DNA of 64,000 nucleotides. It comes from Escherichia coli (GTDB taxonomy: Bacteria > Pseudomonadota > Gammaproteobacteria > Enterobacterales > Enterobacteriaceae). Below, piece after piece: positions 36,312 to 39,300 of the stretch. The position numbers were made by a program. The stretch's first letter is position 1, and each line of letters begins with the position of its first letter. Where the stretch lies: the NCBI RefSeq assembly GCF_041886205.1, contig NZ_CP169029.1; one strand, written 5' to 3'.

Positions 36312-39300
36312 TAATAACGCTACGCCTGTAAGGCGCACTGGCAGTTCCCTCTCCCCTCTGGGGAGGATCTATTAAGTTCTGTTGATGTCAACTGATTTCA
36401 ACAGAACTCTATCCTCTCCATTAAATCTCCTTTAAAATAAGGCATTATCAGAAATTACTCCTCTCTGGATGTCAACCATCCTCCATGAACATCAAGATGA
36501 TTTCGGGGGCTATTGTGGGGGCTACTTTTCGGGGTTAACATCATGCCACTTACTGTTCGACAAATTGAGTCGGCTAAACCCGCTGACAAGGATTACAAAC
36601 TTTCCGACGGTCAGGGACTTTATCTTCTTGTCAAAAAATCCGGCGCCCGTTACTGGAATCTGAAGTACCGGTTTGCCGGTAAGGAAAAGAAACTGGTGAT
36701 TGGTGTCTATCCGGACATATCTCTGGCTCAGGCTCGTCAGAAACGGGATGAAGCGCGTAAACTCCTGGCTGAAGGAAAAGATCCATCATATGAGAAACAG
36801 GCGCGAAAACTTGCCATCAGGGAAAGTATGGCCTGCACATTTCGCACCATTGCAGAGGAATTACTTACCCATATGGCTCGTCGATGGACAACTGGTTACC
36901 AGGCAGACCAGCGTGCAAGACTTGAAAATCATGTTTTCCCTGCAATTGGGAATCGTCCGGTGACCGGGATCCGCCCCATGGAAATACTGAACGTCCTGAG
37001 AGTTATTGAAGAACAGGGAAAACTTGAAGCACTGCGTAAAACACGCCAGCTCTGTGCGCAGGTTTTTGATTATGCCATAGCAACAGGACGTGCAACCGTT
37101 AACCCGGCGTCAACACTCAGCGGGGTACTGCTTCCTCCTGAAAAACAACAGCGCAGGACACTTTCTGAAGAGCAGATGGGGGCTTTCATGCATCAGATGA
37201 CGGCTTCCGGAAATCTGATGTCGCTGACAACGCGAATGCTGGTTCTTACTGCTGTTCGCACCGGAGAACTGCGGCTGGCGACCTGGGATGAAATAAATTT
37301 CACGGAGGCCCTGTGGGTCATTCCGAAAGAAAGAATGAAAATGCGACGACCGCATGTTGTACCGCTTTCACGTCAGGTACTGGCGTTACTGAAGGAGATA
37401 AAAACACGCACTGAATCGCGTAATTCCGCCTTTATTATTCCCGGGGCATTCAGAAAAGATCGCCCCCGAAGCCGTAAGTGTATCAATGAATTCCTTGAAC
37501 AGTCAGGCTGGCATGCCCTGACAACAGCTCACGGATTTCGTCATACCTTCAGCACCATTCTCCATGACCATGATTTCAGCTCAGCCTGGATTGAACTCCA
37601 GCTTGCCCACGTTGATAAAAACGTCATGCGTGGCACCTATAACCACGCCCAGTATCTGGATGGTCGCCGTGAAATGATGCAGTGGTATGCTGACTACATT
37701 GATTCGCTTTCTTAGCAAACCTGATGAATCAGTGACATAAAAATAATGAATAACCATCTGGCCCCGAAAGCCGGATGGTTTTATTTATGTTTTCTTTTTT
37801 ATTTGCTCACATCTTCTGAACTTCCCCTGCAGACAATAATCTGAACACCAGATATAGAGCCACTCATGAAACAAAATAGAATTACATTGAATAATAACTT
37901 ACATTTTTTGTTACATTCATTCCATATTTGTCCCTGGTTGATTGCCAGAACTACGCCGTGATGCATGATAGGAGAATTAGATAATAAGAGAAGAAAAGTA
38001 TGATTCGGGTAGTGCTGGTGGATGACCATGTGGTGGTGCGCTCTGGCTTCGCACAATTACTCTCTCTGGAAGACGATCTGGAGGTCATTGGTCAGTACAG
38101 TAGTGCCGCGCAGGCATGGTCGGCATTAATCCGTGATGACGTCAATGTTGCCGTCATTGATATTGCCATGCCGGACGAAAACGGCCTCAGTTTGCTTAAG
38201 CGCCTGCGTGCACAAAAACCGCAATTTCGCGCCATTATTCTTAGCATTTATGACGCGCCAACCTTTGTGCAAAGCGCGCTGGATGCCGGTGCCAGCGGGT
38301 ATTTAACCAAACGCTGTGGGCCGGAAGAGTTAGTGCAGGCGGTGCGCTCGGTCGGGCTGGGCGGGCATTATCTCTGTGCCGATGCGATTCGGGCTTTACG
38401 CGGCGGCGGGCAACCCGCCCAGGCGCTGGAAATTCTCACCCCGCGAGAACGTGAAGTGTTTGATTTACTTGTCAAAGGAGACAGCGTTAAAGAGATCGCC
38501 TTTAAACTCGAACTCAGTCATAAAACGGTACATGTGCATCGCGCCAATGTGCTGGGAAAACTGAACTGCCATAGCACCATTGAACTGGTGCATTTTGCGC
38601 TCGACCACCATCTGCTGGCGGGGCATTAATGTCGCGCAATCTTCGTCATTGGGTGATTTCGTTGTTTATTGTGCTGGCCTGGGGAACCGGCTGGCTGATG
38701 CTGTGGACGCTCAGCTTTTATCTGACCAATAACGGTCAACAGGCGGCGCTGTTTCTGCCGCACGGGGTTTATCTCGCCCTTCTTATTTTGCTTGCACGCC
38801 GCTACTGGCCTGCGCTGGTGCTCCCCCCTTTGCTGATGATGTTCTGGCTCCATAGCGAACAGCTATTGAACGGTTATATCATGCTGGCAACGCCGGTTAT
38901 TAGCCTGTTTCCTGCCATCCTTGCGCAAAACGTCTGGCACCGTTTTCCACTTTACTGGCAGCGTCTGACGTTACTGTTAGCCACGGTCACAACAGCTTCA
39001 TTGCTGAATACCGCCCTGCTCTCCCCTTTTATGTCAGGCCCAATAATGCTGCCGGGTTTGACCTCATTTACCGGCGGCGTATTACTGACGCCGTTTGTCT
39101 ATCTCATCTTTGAGTTTCTGCGCCAGCAGCATCGCTACCAGCTCCTGGGACTCGATACGCATAATCCCCCCTTGCGTACCTCTTTAATCATCTGGTGTAG
39201 CCTGTTTTTTATTATTGGTATCGGCACTCAGATAGTGCTGTCACCTGAAATTGAACGTCTGCTGTTGATCGTAGTTTTTCTACCCAACGTGGTGATGGCA

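Follow-up and report, generated by a model that had tools for sequence, protein, structure and literature searches.

A hairpin between glnH and an island integrase gene in Escherichia coli: a phased-repeat block of the attL arm with probable excisionase-type binding sites

In the attL site of phage lambda (B-O-P', with H' and P'1-P'3), a heterobivalent integrase acts on a short core and the int-proximal arm carries tandem protein-binding repeats; it is Int that occupies these P' repeats, the sites for Xis being located on the opposite arm. Here we compare with this and other described systems a hairpin that lies between glnH and the integrase gene of a genomic island, at 36375-36408 on the plus strand of a 64,000-nucleotide stretch of Escherichia coli contig NZ_CP169029.1 (assembly GCF_041886205.1). 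This whole stretch is referred to as the window. In the attL of the prophage KplE1 (CPS-53), the 8-bp sites of the excisionase TorI have been mapped relative to the intS ATG: I1/I2 lie at -156 to -129, and I3-I5 at -93 to -66. Arm site P'1 of the integrase IntS overlaps the -10 box, and intS is repressed by both proteins (Panis et al. 2010, PMC2951348). The chromosomal repeats called BoxC, PIT or TMECO follow the pattern CCCTCNCCC-N3-6-GGGNGAGGG-N3-GGGNGAGGG; according to PMC4666352, no integrase was ever encountered in the vicinity of these sites, and what causes the variability linked to TMECO is unknown. Finally, gln and ula were previously reported as insertion loci of papGII islands, together with site-specific integrases (Biggel et al. 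2020, PMC7686366); in the text passages on these insertions we saw no description of the core, the arms or the hairpin. The analysis presented below indicates that the hairpin is probably the core-proximal block of phased repeats in the attL arm of an island that a P4/CP4-57-like integrase inserted in a BoxC/TMECO hairpin, and that the repeats are probable excisionase-type binding sites. As an element of the attL arm of a P4/CP4-like integrase it belongs to a familiar class of features, within an attachment site that is somewhat unusual.

The position of the island boundary was determined by a megablast comparison of 36250-36560 with 5,426 complete E. coli genomes, of which 5,420 matched. Almost all of these matches end at query base 116, which corresponds to window position 36365, and only 18 of the 5,420 genomes match past this point; those 18 carry an island with an integrase there. 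Alignment to an island-free genome shows divergence immediately 3' of GGGGAG. The spacer of that genome reads ...CCCTCTCCCCTCTGGGGAG|AGGATTAGGGTGAGGGGCGC... and continues to glnP, and the window reads ...CCCTCTCCCCTCTGGGGAG|GATCTATTAAGTTCTG.... The junction between chromosome and island is at 36365|36366, upstream of the hairpin and not between 36408 and 36542, where the preliminary description would place it if the hairpin were native. Because homology to island-free genomes stops at 36365, the hairpin belongs to the island, where it occupies the interval 10-42 bp from the left junction, and its sequence is also carried by the island at the ula and yhfS sites. The same description had allowed that the hairpin might be part of the attachment site, and this suggestion is supported, in that the hairpin lies in the arm between the crossover core and int, a region beside the integrase gene that is normally bound by recombination proteins, starting 10 bp inside the island. 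The direct repeat at the ends of related islands is a 14-bp core, TCCCC-N3-GGGGAG, and not the stretch 36408-36542.

In the window this core is the palindrome TCCCC-TCT-GGGGAG at 36352-36365, delimited by the end of homology and by the direct repeat in relatives. A search of the window for TCCCC-N3-GGGGAG finds this single site, which fits the pattern on either strand. It belongs to the left part of the native BoxC/PIT/TMECO repeat, CCCTCTCCCC-TCT-GGGGAG (36347-36365, plus strand), which comparison with the island-free spacer shows to be cut by the island. The native spacer, CCCTCTCCCCTCTGGGGAGAGGATTAGGGTGAGGGG, is a near fit to the pattern of PMC4666352, and the 75-bp glnH-glnP spacer has a median of 12 matches per E. 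coli genome. The hairpin, in contrast, is on the island side and outside the BoxC element: 36375-36408 itself does not fit the BoxC/TMECO pattern, which is seen only next to it, in the left part of an element at 36347-36365.

Inspection of other occupied and empty sites supports this definition of the core. The attB/attL/attR triads of strain 2/0 (glnH) and of strains 2452 and AST46 (ula) have only the 14-bp core in common. In strain 2/0, which carries a pap island at the glnH site, attL is CTC-TCCCCGCCGGGGAG-GATCTATT and attR is ACTAT-TCCCCGCCGGGGAG-AGGATTAGGG. The K-12 site inside ulaE reads CAGCAC-TCCCCGGCGGGGAG-CGCTTTTTC, and strain 2452 has the same 14 bp (TCCCCGGCGGGGAG) at both island ends; in strain AST46, also at the ula site, attL and attR each carry TCCCCGCCGGGGAG, in direct repeat. 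The third site lies after yhfS and has the sequence CCCTCGCCCCTTTGGGGAG|GATC. This sequence is that of several type A entries in the K-12 table of PMC4666352 (e.g. no. 15), and from the coordinates listed there we infer that the yhfS locus is among them. At all sites compared the island starts directly after GGGGAG. The core is the first stem-loop of the BoxC/TMECO repeat at glnH-glnP and at yhfS; the site inside ulaE has nothing more than the 14-bp palindrome in common with them.

In the ula core, 13 bp form a perfect palindrome centred on one base pair, and the orientation of insertion at ula is therefore not fixed. The same island type occupies this core in both orientations, with attL and attR intact each time: int is beside the remainder of ulaE in strain 2452 and beside ulaD in AST46, DETEC-P1056 and SCPM-O-B-9427. 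Insertion at the ula site removes the first 13 codons of ulaE. The centre of the core (36357-36359) is TCT in the window and in the island-free spacer examined, and GCC at both ends of the island in strain 2/0; similarly, the attL core of PKF4 has GCC at its centre, compared with GGC in the native ula site. This suggests either that the core centre lies within the strand-exchange overlap with mismatches tolerated, or that native sites vary between lineages.

This integrase clade targets a short palindrome that makes up the first stem of BoxC/TMECO repeats, with about 12 related copies per E. coli genome (median), and is found at three or more loci (glnH/P, yhfS and ulaE), one of them in both orientations. 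The islands compared here contradict the statement that integrases are absent from the neighborhood of TMECO sites (PMC4666352), and the clade is a candidate cause of part of the TMECO-linked variability. The target-site rule bears on where virulence islands, for example those of the papGII type, can insert, and also on strain-to-strain variability of BoxC/TMECO sites. The papGII islands of PMC7686366 share with the present island the chromosomal site glnP-glnH, and the integrase lineage is that of strain 2/0, whose island carries pap genes; the cargo differs, consisting here of uhp-like sensor genes and an iron ABC transporter.

The hairpin itself has the sequence given in the preliminary description, gttctgttga (36376-36385), a 12-nt loop, tgtcaactgatt (36386-36397), and tcaacagaac (36398-36407), and one more A-T pair (a36375/t36408) extends it to the perfect 11-bp stem of 36375-36408. 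With two mismatches allowed, a repeat search finds arms of 16 nt that are 88% complementary and separated by 2 nt (36375-36390 and 36393-36408). The hairpin begins 61 nt after the glnH stop codon, which ends at 36314, and 135 nt separate it from the int ATG at 36543, in keeping with the distances noted earlier. The 52-nt segment containing it folds as RNA with -17.7 kcal/mol (z = -5.5, with 0 of 200 shuffles as good) and as DNA with -9.7 kcal/mol (z = -4.6). A single 11-bp hairpin is not significant by itself, because a random sequence of 64 kb (first-order Markov model) would have about 0.5 perfect inverted repeats with stems of 11 bp or more and loops of 3-20 nt. However, the hairpin contains three of the seven TCAACWGA octamers present in the 64-kb window, all within 36378-36405: one is inverted (36378-85) and two are direct and 10 bp apart (36388-95 and 36398-405). 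The 177-bp arm has four occurrences of TCAAC/GTTGA, where 0.48 would be expected. Since the octamers cluster in this way and the same dyad was found again in five other attL variants, we regard the hairpin as an inherited feature and not as noise.

The six attL variants come from four chromosomal contexts. Strain 2/0 keeps nine of the ten stem pairs, the ECCNB12 type (glnH, yhfS, ula), in which 10 bp have been lost between core and stem, keeps eight, and the ula type of strain 2452 keeps seven. An integrase-less remnant beside gentisate-pathway genes is without the 10-bp unit TGTCAACTGA; what is left, AGTCCTGTTGA-TT-TCAACAGGGCT, is an almost perfect palindrome in which a single double change has turned T-A into C-G. 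Adding a tandem copy of TGATTTCAAC to the remnant form gives the form of the window. Every insertion or deletion among the variants at the hairpin is exactly 10 bp long, which keeps the helical phase. Over the six variants 89.5% of the cells in the hairpin are paired, compared with 30-44% when the partners are slid. The T-A to C-G change is the only double change in the hairpin, and 172-250 of 500 shuffles were as good. An initial reading of four sequences, that the left arm is not conserved, was dropped when realignment with more variants showed 8-10 of the 10 pairs kept in most of them. About 100 E. coli genomes carry the remnant, which consists of a core-like CCCTTCGGAGAG and about 95 bp of arm downstream of the gene for 3-hydroxybenzoate 6-monooxygenase; it is apparently the scar of an old insertion and keeps the hairpin in its shorter, unduplicated form.

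Inverted-repeat search and folding also reveal a larger, imperfect dyad at 36359-36420 (plus strand), of which the hairpin is the tip. In it, TGGGGAGGAT (36359-68, half of the core and three island bases) pairs with ATCCTCTCCA (36411-20). This 62-bp dyad has 90.8% of its cells paired across the six variants and three double changes, with 46-83 of 500 shuffles as good. In the remnant variant the outer stem has two double changes, GGGGAGGAT / ATCCTCTCC being replaced by GGAGAGGAG / CTCCTCTCC. As judged from the sequences compared, the dyad symmetry is conserved but not proven to be selected.

The integrase gene (36543-37715, plus strand) encodes a P4/CP4-57-like tyrosine integrase with the Pfam domains Arm-DNA-bind_3, Phage_int_M and Phage_integrase, so that both arm-binding and catalytic domains adjoin the site. 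The protein matches PDB structures of CP4-like and CPS-53 integrase domains and is 41% identical to K-12 IntS over its full length. On the basis of the IntS alignment we place the ATG at 36543, although the open reading frame as listed starts with a TTG at 36513. When one genome per species was scanned, 80 related integrases with 41-55% identity were recovered, and in 67 of 78 of these relatives from other species a tRNA gene lies upstream of int. Most of the tRNA 3' ends are 160-200 bp before the int ATG, and those of several selenocysteine-tRNA loci are at 298-299 bp; in the window, the distance from core to ATG is 177 bp.

Alignment of 61 attL arms from this family, whose members are at most 55% identical to the present integrase and too distant for base-pair covariation, reveals a common layout: core, three phased repeats, an A/T block, three further phased repeats, two GGGGGC-type direct repeats, and the ATG. 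The family consensus of the first three 10-bp-phased repeats is ..TCT....A..TC.AC..AA.TC.A. and that of the second three is GTC.AC.....TC.A...AAATCAA. In this alignment the left arm of the hairpin, AAGTTCTG, the TGTCAAC of the loop and the TTTCAAC of the right arm are phased repeats 1, 2 and 3. This core-proximal block is kept in position in 58 tRNA-linked relatives. The clade of the window has in addition a 20-nt insertion after repeat 3, which contains two more pyrimidine-rich units. The core-proximal array as a whole, AAGTTCTG, GATGTCAA, GATTTCAA, GAACTCTA and CCTCTCCA (36374-36421, plus strand), thus comprises three family-conserved repeats and two clade-specific ones; these five 8-mers, with TCAAC at 36388 and 36398, are in approximately 10-bp phase. 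Further toward int, all on the plus strand, are an A/T-rich block, CTTTAAAATAAGGCATTATCAGAAATT (36430-36456), which aligns with the family-wide block AAAACCCnTTATAATCAG and which we guess to be a site for an architectural protein; the second phased-repeat block, GGATGTCAAC CATCCTCCAT GAACATCAAG (36467-36496), found both by repeat search and in the 61-arm alignment; and two direct GGGGGCTA repeats (36505-12 and 36517-24, within 36505-36524), 19-38 bp before the int ATG. The GGGGGCTA repeats are conserved in the family alignment and are candidate integrase arm-type sites overlapping the int promoter region. In related islands the attR arm reads TTTCAACAGA-GTTCAATATA-CCTCCATGTA, followed by two GGGGGCTA, and includes a module homologous to 36467-36496. 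Both motif classes, the TTTCAACAGA-type (TCAAC-type) phased repeats and the GGGGGCTA pairs, are therefore present on both arms.

It was of interest to ask which protein would bind each class of motif, and the attL of KplE1 (PMC2951348) provides the most direct comparison. In both systems int is transcribed away from the core, attL overlaps the int upstream region, two blocks of 8-bp sites stand in 10-bp phase, and the integrase arm sites are beside the promoter. We verified that phased CAGTTCGC-type sites are present in the K-12 sequence at the mapped TorI positions. The hairpin, at -168 to -135 from the int ATG, is near the position of I1/I2 (-156 to -129), an approximate match, and the second phased block corresponds to I3-I5. 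A comparison of 74 loci, in which C-terminal identity was controlled, agrees with the KplE1 mapping: N-terminal identity of Int rises by 0.116 when two loci share a promoter-proximal repeat class and by 0.019 when they share a phased-repeat class, with the proviso that the motif classes are crude and the pairs are not independent. Because of the KplE1 mapping and this co-variation, we read the two GGGGGCTA as integrase arm sites and the phased repeats as excisionase-type sites. Related islands encode a 78-residue AlpA-like helix-turn-helix protein.

These observations suggest the following model. The phased repeats would be bound, as double-stranded DNA, by a recombination protein, most likely the island's excisionase-type recombination directionality factor, an AlpA/TorI/Xis-like winged helix. 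By covering the arm and bending it, this factor would bring the core within reach of integrase molecules anchored on the GGGGGCTA arm sites close to the start of int, and the same binding may also help to keep int repressed. The perfect stem would then be a by-product of the arrangement of the sites, with one TCAACAGA copy inverted and two direct. The second direct copy may have been produced by a 10-bp tandem duplication of TGATTTCAAC, as suggested by the shorter remnant form, although the direction of change is not established.

Several considerations weigh against this assignment. The KplE1 sites are direct repeats of GTTCG type, compared with the TCAAC type here, and KplE1 has neither an inverted copy nor a hairpin; because the site sequences differ, the analogy is positional and not sequence-based, and the coordinates of the KplE1 sites and of the hairpin agree only within 10-20 bp. 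The two loci also differ in that the KplE1 core is the 3' end of argW, a tRNA gene, and the core here is a BoxC-repeat palindrome, and in that the excisionase expected here is AlpA-like and seen in related islands only: tblastn found no convincing AlpA-like excisionase gene in the part of the island that lies within the window. In addition, the dyad is kept in all six variants, and its symmetry, which a head-to-tail excisionase filament does not need, could itself be selected.

A rather unlikely alternative is that the hairpin repeats are integrase arm-type sites like P'1-P'3 of lambda, bound by the N-terminal Arm-DNA-bind_3 domain. The island attL resembles that of lambda in its heterobivalent integrase, its short core and its tandem repeats on the int-proximal arm, where lambda has three tandem arm-type sites. 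The integrase does have an arm-binding domain, and the TCAAC-type motif is on both arms, as arm-type sites are. Indeed, the TCAAC repeats were first assigned in this way, and the assignment was downgraded after the KplE1 mapping and the co-variation test. The arm-binding domain co-varies with the GGGGGC-type repeats and not with the phased ones, and the KplE1 blocks at matching positions are TorI sites, with the IntS arm site located at the promoter. Thus, although the lambda P' repeats bind Int, the evidence favors an excisionase for the phased repeats of this island.

The hairpin may instead function as RNA. Transcripts reading through from glnH could fold the 11-bp hairpin, or the structure of 36359-36420, and so protect the glnH 3' end or damp read-through into int; the new hairpin would replace the BoxC hairpin destroyed by the insertion. 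This possibility draws on the strong predicted folds, that of the hairpin segment given above and that of its 129-nt context (36312-36440), which has a minimum free energy of -41.8 kcal/mol (z = -6.0), on the location of the island inside an operon and on the same strand as glnH, and on the retention of the dyad in all variants with 1-3 double changes. Four tRNA-Arg-linked relatives (L028, L045, L048 and L051) also have a hairpin with a T-run at the same place. Nevertheless, the likeness to a Rho-independent terminator or attenuator, a stable stem-loop downstream of a gene, does not extend to the details, since the stem here is A/T-rich (four G-C pairs in ten), the loop has 12 nt, and no U-tract follows either stem. 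No terminator-like site was called at 36375-36420 on the plus strand, and a promoter and terminator scan of 36200-36700 found neither a sigma-70 promoter nor a plus-strand terminator. No Rfam family reaches threshold in 36100-36700, where the only matches are to two microRNA models, with 18-19 bits against cut-offs of 62 and 73. The covariation in the hairpin and in the composite dyad does not exceed that of shuffles, as described above. Among relatives generally hairpins are not enriched at this place, and a core-adjacent hairpin is not general in the integrase family (the mean best stem is 4.9, compared with 4.7 in shuffles, and a stem of at least 8 bp is present in 9% of loci). Furthermore, these arm sequences are also present at ula, in either orientation, where the context of host transcription is different. 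A role as RNA is accordingly improbable.

About equally improbable is the idea that the 62-bp dyad has a structural role, allowing integrases of this clade to use palindromic, hairpin-prone targets of BoxC/TMECO type (TCCCC-N3-GGGGAG), at several loci and in either orientation. It could offer a second, inverted core-like half-site, or could extrude as a cruciform during synapsis. If true, a dispersed repeat of unknown function would be linked to a system dedicated to island integration, which would provide one explanation for the TMECO-linked genome variability described in PMC4666352.

An IHF site in the loop, comparable to H' of lambda, with an incidental stem, is very unlikely. A TATCAACTGATTT or TATCAACCGATTT is present in the loop of three of the six attL variants and matches WATCAANNNNTTR at 12 of 13 positions, and upstream of int genes of the P4-like kind, sites for IHF are known (PMC7286903). 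But the window's own copy has two mismatches and was not called, a consensus scan of the window's arm finding no IHF site with one mismatch or fewer, and the remnant variant is entirely without the segment. The match may be due to the repeated TCAAC motif, with which the IHF consensus overlaps.

Still less probable is a palindrome with no function of its own, the neutral outcome of a 10-bp duplication beside an older inverted repeat. The relation between the window and remnant forms, the stem mismatches in the ula type (3 of 10) and the ECCNB12 type (2 of 10), and the frequency of stems of at least 11 bp in random sequence are all compatible with such an origin, but the repeats on which the palindrome is built keep their position throughout a wide family, and four chromosomal sites retain the sequence. 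Finally, although the hairpin does lie downstream of glnH on the coding strand, the earlier proposal that it is the native glnH-glnP intra-operon attenuator is refuted: the hairpin is absent from about 5,400 island-free genomes, the outcome that the preliminary description had itself named as decisive against a native origin, and moves with the island to ula and yhfS.

With the boundary now fixed and the native-attenuator lead removed, it is clear that the glnHPQ operon is cut between glnH and glnP. The glnH gene (35568-36314, plus strand) encodes the binding protein of the glutamine ABC transporter and is native chromosome, as identified from its open reading frame and from annotation in matching genomes. 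The 64-kb window contains neither glnP, glnQ nor the right end of the island; the absence of glnP and glnQ implies that the island exceeds 27.6 kb and separates glnH from glnPQ. The island may thus disconnect high-affinity glutamine transport from the promoters of glnH. A small native hairpin, GCGCCTTACAGGCG, lies right after the glnH stop at 36321-36337, on the chromosomal side of the junction, and is a separate candidate for the native 3'-end structure of glnH.

Over 36366-46000 and 46000-64000, the cargo beside int comprises sensor genes like uhpA/uhpB/uhpC and an ABC transporter of the iron type. Its identity to the best-matching E. coli islands is 94.9%, and several of the next best (about 94%) are located at ula. 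For the attL arm, identity to the closest islands at the glnH site is only about 90%, and for the distal part of the island, identity to strain JML285 is 99.4%. The island also contains several IS66-family elements and looks mosaic.

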